Below are positions 5,477-60,298 of a stretch of 64,000 nt of DNA, piece after piece. A model generated the notes under the pieces. The model did not search any database, was not told where the DNA came from, and saw nothing but the letters and a program-made list of their open reading frames with translations. The stretch covers positions 26,526 to 90,525 of the IMG/VR virus record IMGVR_UViG_3300047318_000482; one strand, written 5' to 3'. A program made the translations under genes and the position numbers. This stretch comes from a virus. Positions within the stretch are counted from its first letter, which is position 1; each line of letters begins with the position of its first letter.

Positions 5477-6766
5477 TCAAACCTTGGGAATCTTCAGGAG
5501 TGCCCAGGTCTTGGGGCCCGGGTAGCCGTCGGCGTCGTCGCCGGTCCAGCCCTGCGCCTGCTGGAACGCCTGGACGCAGCGGCGGTCCGCGTTGGTCCAG
5601 TCAGGGCCGGGTCCGGTCGTGTAGTACCGGCCGAAGCCGAGGGCGACCAGGCGCCGTCCCAGCGCGGTGATGATCGGGCTGTGGCGGCCGCCGTGAAAGA
5701 AGGCCTTGCCGGGGAACGGCTCGTACACGGGGGCGGGCTTCGGGGCGGGCTTGGGTGCGGGCTTCTTGGGCAGGGAGCCGAGGAGTTTGACGAGGCTGGT
5801 CGCGCCGGGGACGCCGTCTGCGTCCTGGCCTGCGTTGGTGCCCTTGTAGCCGAGGGACTTCTGGAAGTCGGAGAAGTTCTTGGTGTCGGCGTCCGCCCAT
5901 GCCTCGCCCTCGCCGGCCGTGGCGTTCTTCGCGAACCCGGCCTTCGACAGGGCCTTGCGAACCGCGGTGACCTGGGTGCCCTTGGCGCCGTATCCGTACT
6001 CCAGGCCGTTGATGGTGACCTTGTATCGGGCCGGGGTGGAGGCGGTGACGCCGGTGACGGCCGGGTACTTGGGGCGTCCGTAGCCGGCGATGTCGTGGAC
6101 GACGCGCACGCGGCGTGCGCAGACGTTCGCGGAGTTGCCCTCGATCGTGTACACGTACTTGCCGTCGCTGGAGACGCTGGTGACGACACCGACGTGGTCG
6201 ATCGCGCCGATCTCGGAGGAGGCGTCCCAGTCGAAGAAGATGATGTCGCCGCGGCGGATCCCGGACTTGAGGATGCCGTCGGTCATCGGCGTCCACTGCT
6301 TGGCCGCGTTGAACGCGGCGGCGTGGGCGACGGTGTACGCGTAGTCCTTGCCGAGGCAGACCGCCCCGTAGTTGTCGGAGGCGTACGCGCTGACGGTGAC
6401 GGTGGCGTCGCACCAGGCGAAGTTCCCGGCATACGCGGGGCCGTTGCGTTCGCGGTACCAGTCCTGGATGGCGTTGGGCTCGCCGGTGCCGAGCCAGGCT
6501 TCCATCGCCCGGATCATCTTCTCCAGGCCGCCCGTGTTGCCGCCGAGACTGCGCGGGCTGTCACTGTCCGCGGAATCGGGCGACTGGCGCTGGCCGATCG
6601 CCTCGAGCCACGGGGCGCCGTAGACGCCGCGGTCGTCGGCGGGGCCGAACTCGGCCGCCAGGAGTTCTTCTTCGGTCGAGACGGTCGGGCCGTTGCCGGA
6701 CTGCGTGAGCAGCGCGGCCTGCCGGTCCTGACTGATGTCGTCCTCGAGGGGGCGGGTTTCGCCCAT
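5477..6766 (-). CDS. Endolysin: CHAP amidase/peptidase with two peptidoglycan-binding domains
   Basis: AWCD, GDIIFFDW, DHVGVV and TIEGN motifs; DADGVPG and DADGYPGPKTW binding repeats. Confidence 0.85.
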   Translation of the reverse strand: MGETRPLEDDISQDRQAALLTQSGNGPTVSTEEELLAAEFGPADDRGVYGAPWLEAIGQRQSPDSADSDSPRSLGGNTGGLEKMIRAMEAWLGTGEPNAIQDWYRERNGPAYAGNFAWCDATVTVSAYASDNYGAVCLGKDYAYTVAHAAAFNAAKQWTPMTDGILKSGIRRGDIIFFDWDASSEIGAIDHVGVVTSVSSDGKYVYTIEGNSANVCARRVRVVHDIAGYGRPKYPAVTGVTASTPARYKVTINGLEYGYGAKGTQVTAVRKALSKAGFAKNATAGEGEAWADADTKNFSDFQKSLGYKGTNAGQDADGVPGATSLVKLLGSLPKKPAPKPAPKPAPVYEPFPGKAFFHGGRHSPIITALGRRLVALGFGRYYTTGPGPDWTNADRRCVQAFQQAQGWTGDDADGYPGPKTWALLKIPKV

Positions 6767-26315: not shown

Positions 26316-27065
26316 CTAGCGGTAGTGGATGTTGACGCCGGGCGCGGTGGCGGCGACGTCGGTGGGGTCGAACGGGACCGGGCACTGGTCGGCGAAGACC
26401 TCGCCGTGCCAGAGCAGTGCGCCGCCGGCCTTGGTGCTGCCGGGGTTGAAGCTGATCTCGGAGACGAGGAACCCGGCGAGGGTCTCGGTGCCGTCGGTCG
26501 CGGATGCTCCGCCGCCCGCGGTGGTGGTGGCGATGGCCACGGCGGGGCTGGATCCGCCGGTCAGGGAGGCGGTGCCGGTCATCGCGGGCTGGTCGTCGCC
26601 CAGGTACTGGCCGCCGAACGTGACCACGATCGCCGTGCCGGGGTGCGGGCCGCCGGAGACGGCGACGTCACCGACGTTGATGTTGGACAGCGCCTCGAGG
26701 GCTGCCTTCACCTGCGCCGCTGTCGCGTTGTAGGGGATCGCGGCGGTGGTCTGACCGGACCAGGTCAGCGTGTAGGTGCCGCCGGTGGGGGTGCCGGTGA
26801 CGGTGACGGTCTGCACCTCGGACCGGGGACCCGAGTACGGGGCGTACAGCCCGGACGCGGTGACCTTGCCCAGCGGGATGCCGGACTTCATGACGTTGCG
26901 GCCCTGAAGGACCGGGTTCGCGGAGACCGCGTAGTGCGTGCCCTGCGTGAACTTGCTCAGGTCGAGCGCGATGGTGTTGGTGTCCTGGACTCCTACCAGG
27001 GACGCGAGCCACGGCCGGTCGGCGGTGACGCTGTCCGTGTAGGAGTAGGGCTGGAAGTCGTTCAC
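26316..27065 (-). CDS. Head decoration protein with inserted accessory domain
   Basis: KSGIPLGKVT.SGLYAPY...DGTETLAGFL...HG motif interrupted by a ~100-aa insert. Confidence 0.75.
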   Translation of the reverse strand: MNDFQPYSYTDSVTADRPWLASLVGVQDTNTIALDLSKFTQGTHYAVSANPVLQGRNVMKSGIPLGKVTASGLYAPYSGPRSEVQTVTVTGTPTGGTYTLTWSGQTTAAIPYNATAAQVKAALEALSNINVGDVAVSGGPHPGTAIVVTFGGQYLGDDQPAMTGTASLTGGSSPAVAIATTTAGGGASATDGTETLAGFLVSEISFNPGSTKAGGALLWHGEVFADQCPVPFDPTDVAATAPGVNIHYR

Positions 27066-42828: not shown

Positions 42829-44034
42829 ATGACGACCTTCCCGGAGCTGCTTCGCGGACTGCGCATGGAAGCCCGCATGTCGCTGGCTTGCCTGGCGCGG
42901 CAGGTGCACTACGACCGCACGTCTCTGCACCACTTCGAGTCCGGCCGCAGACCAGCGCCACTCGAGGTCGCGGAGCTCGCCGACGAGGCGCTGGCCGCCA
43001 ATGGCCGGCTCGTCGCAGCGTGGACCCGGGAAGACGTAGAGCGGCGGGAGGCTGCCGCCACGCACAGGGTGCGGGCCGCAGCGTTGGCCATGTCGCGGGA
43101 TCTGACCGCCTTGGCGGACCTGGACATCGCGGAGCTGCAGGACGGGGTGGCCGTGACCGCGGTCGACTACCTGGCCTCTCCCCCGGGTCCGATGATGGAC
43201 CGTGCGCACGTGCTGCGCGGCGAGGCGTTCGAGCGGATCCGGTCCGGGCATCACCGGCCGGCTGACCGTTCGGACCTGTACGTCGCTGCCGGACGCCTGT
43301 CCGGGGTGTTGTCGTACGCGCTGCTCGACATGGGCGACTCAGATGAGGCGCTCGAGCACGCCACCGCGGCGGGCCGGTGCGCCGAGTTCGCCGGAGATGC
43401 GGAGCTGTCCGCGTGGGTGGCCGGCACGAAGTCCCTGATCGCCCGCTTCCAGGGCGACTACGGGCGCGCGCTGGACTACGTGCGAGACGGATACCAGTGG
43501 GTCGGGGCCGGGCACGGCACCGGCGAGGCACGCCTTCGGTGCGGTGAGGCCCAGTGCCTCGCCAACTTGGGCGACAGCCGGGCCGCGAACCACGCCCTGG
43601 ACGGCGCCGAAAACGCCCGGGAGCGCATCCGCCGACCGGACACCCTGGAGGGCCTGTTCGGGTTCTCGAGAGCGAAGCAGTCCTACTACGCCGGATCCTC
43701 GCTGATCTGGCTGCAAGGCGGCCACGACGCGGAACGCGCGGCGCGGGAAGCCCTCGAGGCGATCAGCCTGTGGCAGTCCGGTCCGGTGGAGGAGCGGTCG
43801 CTGGACGACGAGCGGCTGGCGTTCATCTACCTGGCCACGGCCCGGGTGCAACTCGACGACGTGGAGGGTGCGGCCGAAGCCCTGGCACCGGTGCTGTCGT
43901 TGCCAGTGGAAGACCAGATTTCGTGGATCGTGAAGCGGATGGACCGGGTGGCGGGAATGCTCAGCGCACCCCGGTACACGGGGAACCGGACTGCGTCCGA
44001 GACTGTCGAGAAGATCAACGCCATCGCGGCGTGA
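42829..44034 (+). CDS. XRE-family HTH regulator with TPR-like C-terminus
   Basis: LRGLR...SL..LA..V.Y....L..FESGRR; helical repeats. Confidence 0.8.
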   Translation: MTTFPELLRGLRMEARMSLACLARQVHYDRTSLHHFESGRRPAPLEVAELADEALAANGRLVAAWTREDVERREAAATHRVRAAALAMSRDLTALADLDIAELQDGVAVTAVDYLASPPGPMMDRAHVLRGEAFERIRSGHHRPADRSDLYVAAGRLSGVLSYALLDMGDSDEALEHATAAGRCAEFAGDAELSAWVAGTKSLIARFQGDYGRALDYVRDGYQWVGAGHGTGEARLRCGEAQCLANLGDSRAANHALDGAENARERIRRPDTLEGLFGFSRAKQSYYAGSSLIWLQGGHDAERAAREALEAISLWQSGPVEERSLDDERLAFIYLATARVQLDDVEGAAEALAPVLSLPVEDQISWIVKRMDRVAGMLSAPRYTGNRTASETVEKINAIAA

Positions 44035-55262: not shown

Positions 55263-56336
55263 TCAGGCCGCCGACACTGCGCTCTTGTCCTGCCCGTCGA
55301 CGGGGGCGCTGTCGTCGAACCGGTAGTCCGGCGACAGGGCGAACTTGCAGCCCAACTGCGCCGGGGACACCGCCCCGAACTTCCCCTTCAGAGTTTCGAT
55401 GTGCTTCGTCAGTGTCCGCTGGCTGATCCCCAACCGGGCCGCGGTCGTACGCTGCTGGATGCCGTCGACCATGTCCCGCAGGATCGCCCGCTCCAACGGC
55501 GTCGTCCGTACCCGGGGACCCGAGCCCGCCACAGTGTCCACACACCAGTCCCCGGACCCGGACGGCATCTCCTGGACGTCGGACACGGTCCGCGGTTCTC
55601 CCGACCACGGCTGGGCGAGCTGCCAGGCGTTCATGAACGCGCCCACGATGAACCCGATCGCCGCCGGGTCCGTCACATGCCAGGCCGCGTGCGGCGGCGA
55701 CCCGGCCACCGCATAGTCGGAGACGAAGGCGTGCCGGCGGTCGATGACGATGGCCCGCTCGTAGGGGGCGACCAGCGTCCGGTACTCGGCGCCGTGCCCG
55801 GACATCGTCTTGATGTGGCCGGCCATCGCCGTCGACTGGCGGACGGAGTCCCGGTACAGGGTCCGCAGACACACTCCCCGCTCGAGGGCTGCCCGGTCGC
55901 GGTCCACGGACCGTTCCAACTGCGGCCGGGTACGGGGCCCGCCCGGCTGCGCGGCGAGGATCTCGGTACGCGCGGAGTTGAGCAGGTCATCGAGGCGGGT
56001 GTTCACCACGGCGGCGTCGTCGATGTACTCGCTGCTGCCGCCCGCGCGGAGCTGCGCACGGTCGTACTCGGACGACAGTTGCTCCGACATGGCGCGCAGA
56101 CCGCGCATTCTCGCGACGCGTTCCGCGGCCTCGGCCAGCAAAGCCTCGAGACTTCTCTGCGCGATGTCTTCCGGGTTCAACGCGACCGGTGTTCCACCCG
56201 TCGGGTCGATCTTCACGAATCCCCACTCGGCCAACTCGGCCAGGGACTCCACACACTCTTCCGGTATCGGCTCGCCGCCCGCTATCAGGCCAAACGCTCG
56301 CACCGCGTCCGCGGACAACAACTCTCCATCACCCAT
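55263..56336 (-). CDS. TrmB-like / PLD-like sensor domain / LuxR-HTH transcriptional regulator
   Basis: L.EL..WGFV...A..PE (wHTH), EILAAQPGG, RGVCLRTLY, IVIDRRHAF, F...W..A.PW; C-terminal T.LER.IL..M.DG.....A.RLGIS.RT..KH. Confidence 0.8.
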   Translation of the reverse strand: MGDGELLSADAVRAFGLIAGGEPIPEECVESLAELAEWGFVKIDPTGGTPVALNPEDIAQRSLEALLAEAAERVARMRGLRAMSEQLSSEYDRAQLRAGGSSEYIDDAAVVNTRLDDLLNSARTEILAAQPGGPRTRPQLERSVDRDRAALERGVCLRTLYRDSVRQSTAMAGHIKTMSGHGAEYRTLVAPYERAIVIDRRHAFVSDYAVAGSPPHAAWHVTDPAAIGFIVGAFMNAWQLAQPWSGEPRTVSDVQEMPSGSGDWCVDTVAGSGPRVRTTPLERAILRDMVDGIQQRTTAARLGISQRTLTKHIETLKGKFGAVSPAQLGCKFALSPDYRFDDSAPVDGQDKSAVSAA

Positions 56337-56625
56337 TTCGGAATGTGTGGCCAAAGGTTCAGGGACCCGGCCAGGACAAAACCAGACCCTGCGTATACGC
56401 GCAATGCGTAGAGACGCAACGCACAACAGTTGAGGGGGAAAATCCTGTACGGCAGTTTAGTAGCGGGGCGTCCCCCGGCGCCCGTACTCCACGTCCTCCC
56501 CGCACAAAACGCGTCTACTGCCAGGAACACGCGTCGCAGGCAACGGGATCGCAGCGGACCAGAGCACGGGAACACCGGGACGACGCCCCGCTAACGTCCC
56601 CCGAACACTGGACGAAGGGACCCGC

Positions 56626-56817
56626 GTGAACAACCTCCGCGGCATCGCCGCCAGCCTCGCCATCACCGCAACCATCATCACCGGAATCAGCCTCAACATC
56701 GACATCAGCCCCCAAATGGACACCACCTGGGGCGCACCCGACACCCGGGACGTCCCGGCCGTCGACCTTCCCGTCGACCTGCCGCCCGTCACCCCCCTCG
56801 ACACCACCTGGGGCTGA
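56626..56817 (+). CDS. Secreted propeptide with duplicated DTTWG core (candidate signalling peptide)
   Basis: GAAGGGA RBS 5 nt before GTG; signal-like N-terminus; DTTWG internal and C-terminal. Confidence 0.75.
   Translation: MNNLRGIAASLAITATIITGISLNIDISPQMDTTWGAPDTRDVPAVDLPVDLPPVTPLDTTWG
56719..56814 (+). repeat. Exact 15-bp direct repeat GACACCACCTGGGGC (56719-56733, 56800-56814)
   Basis: Read directly from sequence. Confidence 0.9.
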
Positions 56818-56836
56818 CCGGCCCGCCCACCGAGCC

Positions 56837-56870
56837 GGCCCGGCAGCGCACCCCCAGTGCCTGCCGGGCC
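56837..56870 (+). terminator. Hairpin after the peptide gene
   Basis: GGCCCGGCAG...CTGCCGGGCC. Confidence 0.55.
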
Positions 56871-56920: not shown

Positions 56921-57496
56921 ATGGCCCTTCCCGAACCGCCATCCGCTGATCCGCCCCCGGAAACGCTGCTCCTGTCCGGCAGTACGTGGCGCTACATCCT
57001 CGGCACGCCCCGCCATACCAAGCTGAACGCCTGGCTGACGGCCAACGGGATCGACCCGGCGGATACCCCGGTCGTCACCGACCTGAAGGTCGTACATGCT
57101 CCGGACGGACCCGTCATCGACCACCACGTCCTGCTCCGGAACGCTGCCGGCCACCTCTACTTCGACGCCAGCGCCGGTGAAGCGGCCATGGAACACCGGA
57201 TCACCCCGTGCACCGTCCTCCCTCCCCGCCCCAGGCGATCCGACATCCCCACCCGGGCTCTCCTCCAATGCATTGCCGACCGCACTGCCCTTCGCCGATC
57301 AGTCCCCCTCCTGGACAGTCTGAAGATCCCCAGAGCCTGGGACATCCTCTGCACCATCCACCCGGAGAAAGTCGTCGGCGCAGCATTCGACCGAGAGGAA
57401 GACCGCGGCTACCTGGACTGCGGCGTGAACATCACCTACGCCTTCCTCACCCCCGAAGGCGAAGCCCGACTCGCCGAGCTCGGAGGACAGCCGTGA
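56921..57496 (+). CDS. Hypothetical protein
   Basis: WL.ANGIDP motif; C-terminal winged-helix-like LT..G. Confidence 0.6.
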   Translation: MALPEPPSADPPPETLLLSGSTWRYILGTPRHTKLNAWLTANGIDPADTPVVTDLKVVHAPDGPVIDHHVLLRNAAGHLYFDASAGEAAMEHRITPCTVLPPRPRRSDIPTRALLQCIADRTALRRSVPLLDSLKIPRAWDILCTIHPEKVVGAAFDREEDRGYLDCGVNITYAFLTPEGEARLAELGGQP

Positions 57497-58076: not shown

Positions 58077-58727
58077 TCAATGCCGGTACGGCGGAAGTAC
58101 CTGATCCACCCGCCGGGCCAGCTCCCGCTTCGCCGCCCGGTTCCGGCCCGTCGGCGCCGCCTTCAGCACCGGGACCAGCGTCTCGGCCGCCAGGACGTGC
58201 ACCGGGCCCGACCGGCCCGCCACCCCCACCTGAAGCCGGCCACCCGCCACCGTCGAGCCGTGGATGACGAGGACCGGCCATACCGCGCCCTCCGGCAGCC
58301 CCAGCAGGCGGGCCACTGTCCCCGCGTACCGGGCGACCTTCTCCGCCTCCCCATGCCGGTCCTCCGACTCGCAGTACAACCGCCCCGACACCACCTGGGT
58401 CGGCCACGACCGCCGCCACGCCTTCGTGTCGAACAGGACGACGTTCTCTCCGTCCGGGGACACCCCCACATGGTCCGCGTTCGCGCGCCCGTGCCCAGGT
58501 AATCGCCGGTCGTGCAGGATCCGCCACCCCCGCCAGCGCAGCCCGCGCAGCAGCCGGGCCGTGTCCCGTTCCGCGGCCGCGCCACGCTCCCAGCGGGCCG
58601 CCACAGCGTCCGCGCGCACCGCGTCCGGGTTCATCCCCGCCCACGCGCTGACACGCCGCCACACACCCCGCCGGGCCCGCGCACGGATCGCCGCAGCCTC
58701 CCGCGCCGCCGACCTGCCCGCGCTCAC
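58077..58727 (-). CDS. NERD-domain nuclease
   Basis: GAAAE, LHDRRLP, NADHV.V.P, DTK.W motifs. Confidence 0.8.
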   Translation of the reverse strand: MSAGRSAAREAAAIRARARRGVWRRVSAWAGMNPDAVRADAVAARWERGAAAERDTARLLRGLRWRGWRILHDRRLPGHGRANADHVGVSPDGENVVLFDTKAWRRSWPTQVVSGRLYCESEDRHGEAEKVARYAGTVARLLGLPEGAVWPVLVIHGSTVAGGRLQVGVAGRSGPVHVLAAETLVPVLKAAPTGRNRAAKRELARRVDQVLPPYRH

Positions 58728-59218
58728 CGGGACGCCTCCCGCCACCAGCGCAGCCCTTCCGGCTCCTCACGCTCGAGGTCCCCGTCACACGTGGCCAGGT
58801 ACCGGGAGTAGGCGGCCACACGGTCCGCGGCGTACTCCCGCTGCGGCGTCGTCATCTTCTTCGTCGTCCACCACCAGTTGCCCTCGAGCCAGACCGTGTG
58901 CCAGGCCCCGTTCTCCGGTGTGTCCCCGGCCTCGTCGCTGGCCTCAGAATCGTGCGCAAGGATCAGCTCGTACTTCGGCTGCCACTTCAGGCAGGCCGCG
59001 CACGTCACCTCCGTGCCCTCCGGCAGCGGACCCTGCTGCATCGACTCTCCGCAGATCCCCGGCCCGGTCGCCCACGCCTCGAACGTGGGCAGCCACGTGT
59101 ACAGGGCGAGGTGCACGCCGTCCGGGTCGTCGGAGATGACCGTGGCGCGCACCGGGCGCAGGTAGCGGCGGGACCGGTCCAGGCCCTGCTCGTCTCCGAG
59201 ATGCACGTCGACGCTCAC
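58724..59218 (-). CDS. Hypothetical protein
   Basis: GTGA-coupled; H...CG...VTC..C. Confidence 0.6.
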   Translation of the reverse strand: MSVDVHLGDEQGLDRSRRYLRPVRATVISDDPDGVHLALYTWLPTFEAWATGPGICGESMQQGPLPEGTEVTCAACLKWQPKYELILAHDSEASDEAGDTPENGAWHTVWLEGNWWWTTKKMTTPQREYAADRVAAYSRYLATCDGDLEREEPEGLRWWREASR

Positions 59219-59417: not shown

Positions 59418-59789
59418 CTAAGATGTCCAGTTTCTCGCGGGCCGTTCGGCCCGATCAGCAGACCGGCGAGGCGTCAGACCACCCCGCTCGTCCACGTACT
59501 GGCCTCGAGGAGCCCGCAGCTCCACCTCGTCCGGGCGGATCAGACCGCGAACCAGCGCGATGGCCACCGCGTTCGCCCGGTCCCTCGCCCCCAGACGCCG
59601 GTAGATCTCCCGCCAGTAGTCGTTCACCGTGTGCGGGCTGAGGAACAACGCCTCAGCAATCTCCGGCGTGCTGTGCCCGTTCGCTGCGAGCCGCAGGAGC
59701 TGCAGGTGCTGGGGGAAGAGGTGGAGCGCTGACGGGACGGGCCCGCCACCCGAAGGCGACGGACCCACCTGCTGCACGGGGGCGGTCAC
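59418..59789 (-). CDS. Stand-alone LuxR-type HTH regulator
   Basis: L.L.ANG.S..EIA..LFLS..TV......IY.RLGARDRA.AV. Confidence 0.8.
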   Translation of the reverse strand: MTAPVQQVGPSPSGGGPVPSALHLFPQHLQLLRLAANGHSTPEIAEALFLSPHTVNDYWREIYRRLGARDRANAVAIALVRGLIRPDEVELRAPRGQYVDERGGLTPRRSADRAERPARNWTS

Positions 59790-60298
59790 AGGTGGCCGCC
59801 GTGGGTGCCGTAGCCGTCGAGCAGCTCGTGCAGCCACTTGTACTCGTGGCTGGTCGCCCAGTCCCGCACGCTCTTCACCTGCTCCCGCAGCTTGGCAACT
59901 TCCTTGTCCTGGCGCTCCCTCTCCCAGGCCTCCGTGTTGGTCTTGGACTCCTCGGCCATCTGCTGGCCGTCGTCAACCCACTGCTGGAGTTCGGACAGAT
60001 CCTTGGCGACGTTCCGCTCGAGCCAGTCCGTGTGCTCCTCCGGGTCCGGGCCCTCCTCGAACGGCCCCTGGAACCAGTCGGTGACCTCCTGCGCCCGATC
60101 CGGGGCGACCTCGCCCAGGGCGTGCAGGGCGCGGGCGAACCCGGCGGCCATCGAGCCGGCGACGGCCTGCCAGCCCATGGCGGCCGGGTGCTTGGGGAGC
60201 GGGGAGACGCAGGTACGGGTGTGAAGTTCACCGAGGTCGTGAAGGAGTTGCTCGGTGGTCTGCGGCGTCTCGGTGACGGTTTCGGGTGTGGCGGTCAT
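59786..60298 (-). CDS. Hypothetical protein
   Basis: GAGGAGG RBS. Confidence 0.6.
   Translation of the reverse strand: MTATPETVTETPQTTEQLLHDLGELHTRTCVSPLPKHPAAMGWQAVAGSMAAGFARALHALGEVAPDRAQEVTDWFQGPFEEGPDPEEHTDWLERNVAKDLSELQQWVDDGQQMAEESKTNTEAWERERQDKEVAKLREQVKSVRDWATSHEYKWLHELLDGYGTHGGHL

Follow-up and report, generated by a model that had tools for sequence, protein, structure and literature searches.

Within the 64,000-nucleotide stretch of viral DNA analysed here (the window; positions 26,526 to 90,525 of IMG/VR record IMGVR_UViG_3300047318_000482), a small gene coding for a 63-residue pre-peptide with two copies of the pentapeptide DTTWG diverges from the gene of a 357-residue regulator. 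We favour, with a confidence somewhat better than even, the reading of this pair as a two-gene peptide-signalling cassette in which the regulator would be the receptor of the peptide. The pair probably represents a new peptide-signalling family, similar to arbitrium and Rap-Phr in its working and built of unrelated parts.

The virus record behind the window measures 90.5 kb and is rated complete by CheckV, and the G+C content of the element is 69%. Phage proteins are encoded in the window (tape measure protein, major head protein, portal, large terminase and a DnaB-like helicase), and the relatives at the DNA level are Streptomyces plasmids of 88–94 kb as deposited, pSAM1 of S. ambofaciens among them. 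A comparison of the DNA of the module region with deposited phages gave no match. Since a complete virus record with phage genes is joined here to DNA relatives deposited as plasmids, the label phage-plasmid, already given to the element in a first-pass annotation, is a fair one.

The pre-peptide gene and its relatives

The pre-peptide gene (56626..56817, plus strand) opens with a GTG codon at 56626, closes with a stop codon at 56815–56817 and is preceded, 5 nt upstream of the start, by the ribosome-binding site GAAGGGA (56614..56620, plus strand), as read from the sequence; a purine-rich block ahead of the start codon is kept in relatives. The third-position G+C of the frame (0.92) is like that of genes elsewhere in the element. 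The product has the layout MNNLRGIAASLAITATIITGISLNIDISPQM-DTTWG-APDTRDVPAVDLPVDLPPVTPL-DTTWG. At its N-terminus (MNNLRGIAASLAITATIITGISL) a single basic residue is followed by an uncharged hydrophobic stretch, and residues 1–23 (MNNLR and 18 uncharged hydrophobic residues; 56626..56694, plus strand) can be read as a signal-like segment. The first DTTWG unit occupies residues 32–36 (56719..56733) and the second residues 59–63, at the extreme C-terminus (56800..56814), both on the plus strand and both coded by the same 15 nt (GACACCACCTGGGGC, at 56719 and 56800); the spacer between them, APDTRDVPAVDLPVDLPPVTPL, is acidic and Pro-rich. A G+C-rich hairpin with a perfect 10-bp stem and no U-tract, located by folding and by repeat search, lies 3' of the gene (56837..56870, plus strand). 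The 71-nt stretch that contains it folds with −38.7 kcal/mol (z −3.7 against shuffles), and the hairpin is a possible terminator or processing site. The small gene with its ribosome-binding site, signal-like N-terminus, two units from an exact 15-bp repeat and following hairpin is thus present just as the first-pass annotation had described it.

No other open reading frame (ORF) of the window has both a signal-like N-terminus and a [DE]xxWx C-terminus. Searches of Pfam and NCBIfam with the peptide matched no family, and a search with the window's peptide alone returned four close relatives only. The possibility of a chance ORF was rejected on the grounds of third-position G+C, conservation and enrichment beside the regulator, and a lipoprotein reading was rejected because the product contains no Cys.

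A survey of relatives was made from the side of the regulator. Relatives were gathered from plasmids (110 records), deposited phages (Chymera), IMG/VR and a set of one genome per species, from which the best 80 of 309 were kept; removal of duplicates left 107 loci, with regulators 28–80% identical to that of the window. A strict filter was applied, by which an ORF had to lie no more than 1.5 kb from the regulator, to have a signal-like N-terminus and to end in [DE]xxW(x). An adjacent signal-peptide ORF was found by this filter in 76 of the 107 loci and by eye in seven others, three of which fail the crude signal filter and four of which carry a short C-terminal extension, which brings the total to about 83. 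The peptide gene is divergent from the regulator in 59 loci (median gap 301 bp) and convergent in 16, mostly of Kitasatospora, where it directly follows the regulator (median gap 73 bp). Motif-ending ORFs reach a density of 0.61 per kb within 600 bp of the regulator and of only 0.006 per kb in the outer flanks, which total 477 kb, an enrichment of motif-ending signal-peptide ORFs of about 100-fold. A signal-like N-terminus is seen in 71 of the 88 motif-ending frames that adjoin regulators. Many of these small genes are already annotated in GenBank or RefSeq as hypothetical proteins, both in plasmids and in phage Chymera. The first-pass annotation had proposed that small signal-peptide genes ending in DxxW(x) be looked for beside regulator homologues, and about 83 of the 107 loci have one.

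A closer look at the precursors points to the pentapeptide as the conserved part. In the eight closest relatives the DTTWG units are invariant and the spacers differ both in sequence and in length. Among 76 unique precursors, 49 contain two to four identical units, and for 29 of these 49 all differences between the copies are synonymous. The Chymera copies read GATCCGGGTTGGGGC and GACCCCGGCTGGGGA, with four synonymous differences per 15 bases, and in another locus Ser is coded by TCC in one copy and by AGC in the other. Such synonymous-only differences indicate that identity is kept at the level of the peptide and not by recent duplication of DNA; the pentapeptide unit itself is under selection. 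A terminal copy is present in all precursors, single-copy forms included, and outside the units nothing of the exported part is conserved in sequence or length (28–95 aa overall). The spacers are Pro-rich and usually open with [A/T/S]-P after the unit.

In all, 29 terminal motifs were seen, among them DTTWG, DTAWG, DTGWG, DTWWG, DSAWG, DSQWG, DPGWG, DSAWN, DTIWN, DSVWQ and DTVWT. The filter accounts in part for Asp (rarely Glu) at position 1 and for Trp at position 4, and an unfiltered look at the small signal-peptide ORFs beside the regulator gave the same D/W pattern. Position 2 is mostly Thr or Ser and position 3 is free; at position 5 the Streptomyces elements have Gly, and those of Kitasatospora have Asn, Gln, Thr or Ser. 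All three copies of the pSAM1 precursor read DTAWG. When mapped on a tree of 108 regulators, the motif classes group into clades and show a total of 34 changes; DTWWG arises in more than one place. The peptide motif thus changes with the clade of the regulator, the co-variation that had been put forward, together with adjacency, as a check on the proposal.

Eight precursors contain two different units (for example DTTWG with DTGWG, DTGWG with DTAWG, and DSVWQ with DSVWE). These may be intermediates in a change of peptide type or specificity.

The divergent regulator

The regulator gene (55263..56336, minus strand; 357 aa, the stop codon being included in the coordinates) has an ATG start that matches the annotated starts of homologues. 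No membrane segment was seen in the protein, which is therefore presumably cytoplasmic. An AlphaFold2 model built on 89 relatives, with a mean pLDDT (the predicted local distance difference test) of 85.7, begins with a winged helix-turn-helix (residues 9–52; 56181..56312, minus strand), placed by the secondary structure of the model and by alignment with TrmBL2 and TrmB. This is followed by a long helix of 43 residues (residues 55–97; 56046..56174, minus strand), also matched by TrmBL2 and TrmB. It corresponds to the coiled-coil dimerisation helix of TrmB, from which a role in dimerisation may be extended to it. Next comes a PLD-like alpha/beta domain without an HKD motif (residues 102–243; 55608..56033, minus strand), defined by Foldseek and the model. 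Past residue 243 the model shows a disordered linker (residues 254–274) and a LuxR helix-turn-helix (residues 280–340); the sole Pfam match of the regulator, to the GerE/LuxR helix-turn-helix (PF00196, 24.7 bits at a cut-off of 23.5), covers residues 279–328 (55353..55502, minus strand).

Foldseek matched the first three parts of the model to TrmBL2 (5bpd, E 4e-11) and TrmB (3qph, E 7e-8), and the alpha/beta domain matched the PLD-fold nuclease Nuc (1byr), Zucchini and the sugar-binding domain of TrmB (2f5t). A profile of the regulator sequence searched against the sequences of the Protein Data Bank found TrmBL2 (2e-9) across positions 12–228 and, for the C-terminal helix-turn-helix, NarL, FixJ and GerE. 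Fold search and profile search therefore agree on the order of domains first proposed for this protein, a winged helix-turn-helix, a PLD-like domain lacking the HKD motif and a LuxR helix-turn-helix. By fold and profile, the regulator as modelled belongs to the TrmB family, with the LuxR helix-turn-helix in place of the sugar-binding subdomain. The family is large, with 1,554 representatives of 50%-identity clusters at E ≤ 1e-30; the automatic names of these clusters are generic and the taxa listed for them are Actinomycetota.

The catalytic motif of PLD enzymes, HxK(x)4D, is absent from the regulator sequence. The strand that matches it reads IDRRHAFVSD, and D199 and R200 are conserved instead. 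In an alignment of 89 sequences the invariant and nearly invariant residues of the family fall mostly in the PLD-like domain and not in the two DNA-binding domains. They comprise E125, L127, Q130, P131, D199 and W238, together with seven conserved arginines (Arg 135, 153, 158, 166, 186, 194 and 200). The PLD-like domain is a candidate ligand site, and a role in ligand binding may be assigned to it. The match to 2f5t makes a receptor plausible, since the domain matched there is part of the sugar-binding region of TrmB.

Genomic contexts, control region and flanking genes

The pair is found in phage-plasmids of about 90 kb, in a temperate phage, in plasmids, including some of 130 kb, and in chromosomes. 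In the temperate phage Chymera it lies two genes from the integrase and three from the annotated immunity repressor, and nearly the same DPGWG precursor occurs in pairs located at the ends of viral contigs of 35–36 kb. In four Streptomyces contigs a single-copy peptide gene (DSRWG, DSAWG or DSQWG) stands directly upstream of biosynthetic genes, which code for an aminotransferase and a TauD dioxygenase, for a condensation-carrier protein of nonribosomal peptide synthetase (NRPS) type, or for a PhyH dioxygenase; a chromosomal cassette of this kind may be a cluster-situated switch. Three Kitasatospora loci have the regulator after dnaJ-hspR, at a fixed chromosomal site, with convergent peptide genes (DSVWQ, DTVWT, DTIWN) 56–232 bp past it. 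A distribution over phage-plasmids, a temperate phage near its repressor, viral contigs and the vicinity of biosynthetic genes is typical of quorum-sensing cassettes. As the family is far wider than phage-plasmids, control of lysis and lysogeny cannot be its general function. Two carriers can be cultured: pSAM1 (DTAWG) in its host S. ambofaciens ATCC 23877, and phage Chymera (DPGWG), which grows on S. venezuelae.

The intergenic region of the window contains two adjacent TGCG-N6-CGCA palindromes, one base apart (56390..56418), 54–82 bp upstream of the start of the regulator. The tandem arrangement is kept in 12 relatives whose regulators share only about 50% identity. The window holds three matches to the pattern, two of them at this position, and the paired form is absent elsewhere in it. 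The palindromes are a candidate operator. No regulon can therefore be proposed from this search of the window.

Nearer to the peptide gene, a conserved leader was defined by an inverted repeat and by the alignment of relatives (56461..56593, plus strand). Its ends are 12-nt perfect inverted arms (56461–56472 and 56582–56593; GGGGCGTCCCCCG and its partner GACGCCCC), 109 nt apart, between which lie the blocks CTGCCAG (56518–56524) and TCGCAGC (56549–56555). The arms and both blocks are invariant in 28 relatives, and the intergenic blocks overall are kept in 12–28 relatives with regulators about 50% identical. In an RNAalifold prediction the long-range arms pair with each other and CUGC pairs with GCAG. 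The long-range stem is nearly invariant, with covariation limited to one column, split 14:14 between U-A and U-G; this column fits an RNA better than a DNA site, and few changes are truly compensatory. Around CTGCCAG a local hairpin has compensatory arms in some relatives and is only weakly better than shuffles (5.2 against 4.6 bp). The leader region matched no family in a search of Rfam, and a simple scan of the region found no sigma-70-like promoter. The conserved leader may be a folded RNA or a set of protein-binding sites.

Beyond the hairpin that follows the peptide gene, an ORF of 191 aa (56921..57496, plus strand) has no Pfam or NCBIfam match. Its residues 30–120, approximately, recur at the same position in six of the fetched loci searched by tblastn. 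It is the candidate output gene and the sole one that can be named in the element, its assignment to the module being speculative. For a link to conjugation no support was found, since the ORF of this genome that had been called TraB matched nothing in Pfam or PHROGs.

Other genes of the window were noted in passing. A protein of 401 aa (42829–44034, plus strand) with an XRE-type HTH_31 domain, a weak TPR_12 match and a match to phrog_10886 (transcriptional regulator) is another regulator of the element, possibly its repressor. A second LuxR/GerE helix-turn-helix protein, small (139 aa; 59418–59837, minus strand; Pfam E 1.1e-11) and without a sensor domain, is encoded 3 kb from the module. A NERD nuclease-related protein is encoded at 58077–58745 (minus strand), and a NERD gene lies close to the module in several related plasmids as well. 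A protein with a CHAP domain and a peptidoglycan-binding domain (5477–6766, minus strand) is a probable endolysin.

Proposed working, alternatives and known systems

We infer the following course for the export, cleavage, uptake and binding of the peptide, for the direction in which regulation works and for its biological output. The 63-residue product would be exported through its N-terminal signal-like segment, and extracellular proteases would release short peptides built around D-T-T-W-G, two per precursor, the terminal unit needing an N-terminal cut only. The peptide would build up as carriers of the element become more numerous and would be taken up by the oligopeptide permease of the host. 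Inside the cell it would bind the conserved arginine-rich PLD-like domain of the divergent TrmB/LuxR regulator. It is only a suggestion from the sequences that the acidic residue, the Trp and the free carboxyl end of the peptide are compatible with the arginines and aromatics of this domain. Binding would change the hold of the regulator on DNA, for which the tandem TGCG-N6-CGCA palindromes of the shared intergenic region are the likeliest target, and both the cassette and genes that lie downstream of the peptide gene would change in expression as a result. In the phage-plasmid the output may be a life-cycle decision.

Several observations weigh against the regulator being a peptide receptor. 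About one fifth of its relatives have no adjacent peptide gene, and these include a whole subclade at 40–43% identity (ten loci), in which the peptide gene has been lost; there the regulator faces a 278-aa helix-turn-helix protein and, in two of the loci, is followed by a DUF4344 metallopeptidase. The conserved residues of the domain are preserved equally well whether a peptide gene is present or not (deviation at conserved positions of 5.9% with and 6.2% without the gene). This result is neutral: regulators that lack the gene may respond to peptides from another source, or may use the site for something else. The regulator has no counterpart of the C-terminal sugar-binding subdomain of TrmB, and its top structural match, TrmBL2, is a chromatin protein that is not known to have a ligand. 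A phosphate-bearing molecule or a nucleic acid would be an equally good candidate for binding at the arginine-rich site (compare the PLD-fold nucleases). On the side of the peptide, the N-terminus of the window's precursor has one basic residue only and no clear A-x-A cleavage site. The matching of motif classes to regulator clades would also result from co-inheritance alone. A search for regulator residues that track position 3 of the peptide (T, A, G or W) found only columns explained by shared ancestry, and no convergent regulator changes were seen in the three DTWWG lineages.

The main alternative holds that the regulator controls its neighbour and nothing more, and that the secreted peptide acts elsewhere, as a signal to a host membrane sensor, as an inhibitor of competitors or superinfecting phages or as a developmental cue, the regulator itself sensing something else or nothing. 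Divergent regulator-target pairs are common, and adjacency and clade matching fit this arrangement as well, as do a site that could bind a phosphate-bearing ligand, the preservation of that site where the peptide gene is missing and the position of some chromosomal peptide genes at the head of biosynthetic genes. A mere switch of a neighbour leaves the 29 clade-wise variants of the motif unexplained, however, and does not account for the joint movement of the two genes among phages, plasmids and chromosomes; nor is a membrane sensor gene conserved beside the pair in the loci read. We consider this alternative unlikely.

A second alternative, that the product remains uncut, a small protein either anchored in the membrane or secreted (acting, for example, in superinfection exclusion or at the surface) with the D-x-x-W-x segments as binding repeats, is highly improbable. 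The hydrophobic N-terminus of the window's product, without an obvious signal-peptidase site, could indeed be a membrane anchor; small membrane proteins are often encoded and expressed in the immunity regions of prophages, and the peptide gene of Chymera lies near the repressor. Against this, the exported part outside the units is conserved in neither sequence nor length, and single-copy forms keep the terminal unit only. The unit is always at or nearly at the end of the protein, which points to a need for a free C-terminus.

The least probable of the alternatives makes the small protein a multi-core precursor of a ribosomally synthesised and post-translationally modified peptide (RiPP), whose D-x-x-W-x cores would be cut out and modified (on tryptophan, for instance) under a pathway regulator: repeated identical cores with variable spacers are a hallmark of multi-core RiPP precursors and are present here likewise, and some relatives adjoin PhyH, TauD, aminotransferase or NRPS condensation-carrier genes, but these enzymes vary by locus near the chromosomal copies, the phage-plasmid and phage loci have small variable hypothetical genes and no conserved modifying enzyme beside the pair, and the N-terminus resembles an export signal more than it does a leader to be recognised by a cytoplasmic enzyme.

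Read as a peptide-signalling cassette, the pair can be compared with several known systems. It shares with arbitrium (AimR-AimP-AimX of SPbeta-like and other Bacillus phages) the carriage by a temperate phage, the module of Chymera lying in the lysogeny-control region. It also shares a small gene whose product begins with an export signal and which adjoins the gene of a cytoplasmic transcription factor, an active unit at the extreme C-terminus of the precursor and a short peptide that varies among related phages. It differs in its receptor, which is TrmB-like with a PLD-like domain and a LuxR helix-turn-helix and not of the TPR/RRNPP type, in the mostly divergent and not tandem genes, in the two to four units of most precursors and in its hosts, which are Actinomycetota. 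For AimX no counterpart output was identified here.

With the RRNPP(A) systems of Firmicutes (Rap-Phr, NprR-NprX, PlcR-PapR, PrgX, Rgg-SHP, ComR-XIP) the proposed working has in common an exported pro-peptide, a C-terminal oligopeptide, uptake by a permease and an adjacent intracellular receptor; in both cases chromosomes, plasmids and phages are carriers and there are many peptide types. A pro-peptide gene with an export signal beside the regulator and with its unit at the C-terminus, the arrangement typical of RRNPP systems, is seen at the level of sequence features in the approximately 83 relatives mentioned above. The receptors, however, are unrelated in sequence and fold, and the D-x-x-W-x peptides are an unrelated family. 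No TPR-like repeats, which make up the RRNPP receptor fold, were found in the regulator by Pfam, and the fold search gave TrmBL2, TrmB and PLD-family proteins, which upholds the earlier claim of a receptor fold unrelated to RRNPP/TPR. Because the defining TPR receptor is absent, the pair is not a member of arbitrium or RRNPP.

The archaeal TrmB, TrmBL1 and TrmBL2 have in common with the regulator its first three parts, from the winged helix over the long helix to the PLD-like domain; in place of their sugar-binding subdomain it has the disordered linker and a second DNA-binding domain of LuxR/GerE type. Known TrmB ligands are sugars, not peptides. The likeness to the LuxR family (acyl-homoserine lactone receptors and LuxR solos) is confined to the C-terminal four-helix GerE/LuxR helix-turn-helix, through which alone RhlR matches the regulator; Pfam found neither an autoinducer-binding domain nor a receiver domain, and the putative signal is gene-encoded here. 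Several identical mature units with variable spacers on one exported chain are also known from multi-copy precursors such as some Phr pre-peptides and yeast alpha-factor, although the sequences are unrelated and no known processing sites are present here.

A characterised relative may exist in MilO, a Streptomyces regulator of 356 aa that activates the mildiomycin cluster and has a LuxR helix-turn-helix at residues 286–333 and an unannotated N-terminal domain (PMC11784345). MilO has been placed near receiver-domain regulators and binds three direct repeats without added ligand (PMC11784345). Compared by description only, it has the same length and layout as the regulator of the window, some relatives of which adjoin biosynthetic genes as well.

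A search of the literature on D-x-x-W-x motif strings, on peptide signalling in Streptomyces phages and on TrmB-LuxR regulators found no description of such a system. Streptomyces and its relatives are textbook signallers by small molecules, such as gamma-butyrolactones, and no description of a gene-encoded peptide with an intracellular receptor was found for them. To our knowledge, phage communication by peptides (arbitrium) is known only from Bacillus and its relatives.

In its widest form, to which we give about an even chance, the proposal is of a Streptomycetaceae-wide family of peptide pheromones with private 'dialects', by which phage-plasmids and temperate phages would sense their own abundance, and which would serve plasmids, biosynthetic clusters and chromosomes in density control. 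It would be the first peptide quorum-sensing system of exported-peptide/intracellular-receptor type in Actinomycetota and the first phage communication outside Firmicutes, independent of RRNPP. The hypothesis is directly testable, as the predicted peptides are unmodified and five to eight residues long and culturable carriers exist. If it is true, signalling from phage to phage has evolved at least twice, from unrelated receptors, and the TrmB/PLD-like fold gains a peptide ligand. The 29 motifs seen would then supply those who engineer Streptomyces with switches, in the form of short orthogonal peptide-regulator pairs, and those silent biosynthetic clusters that bear such a pair would acquire a handle.

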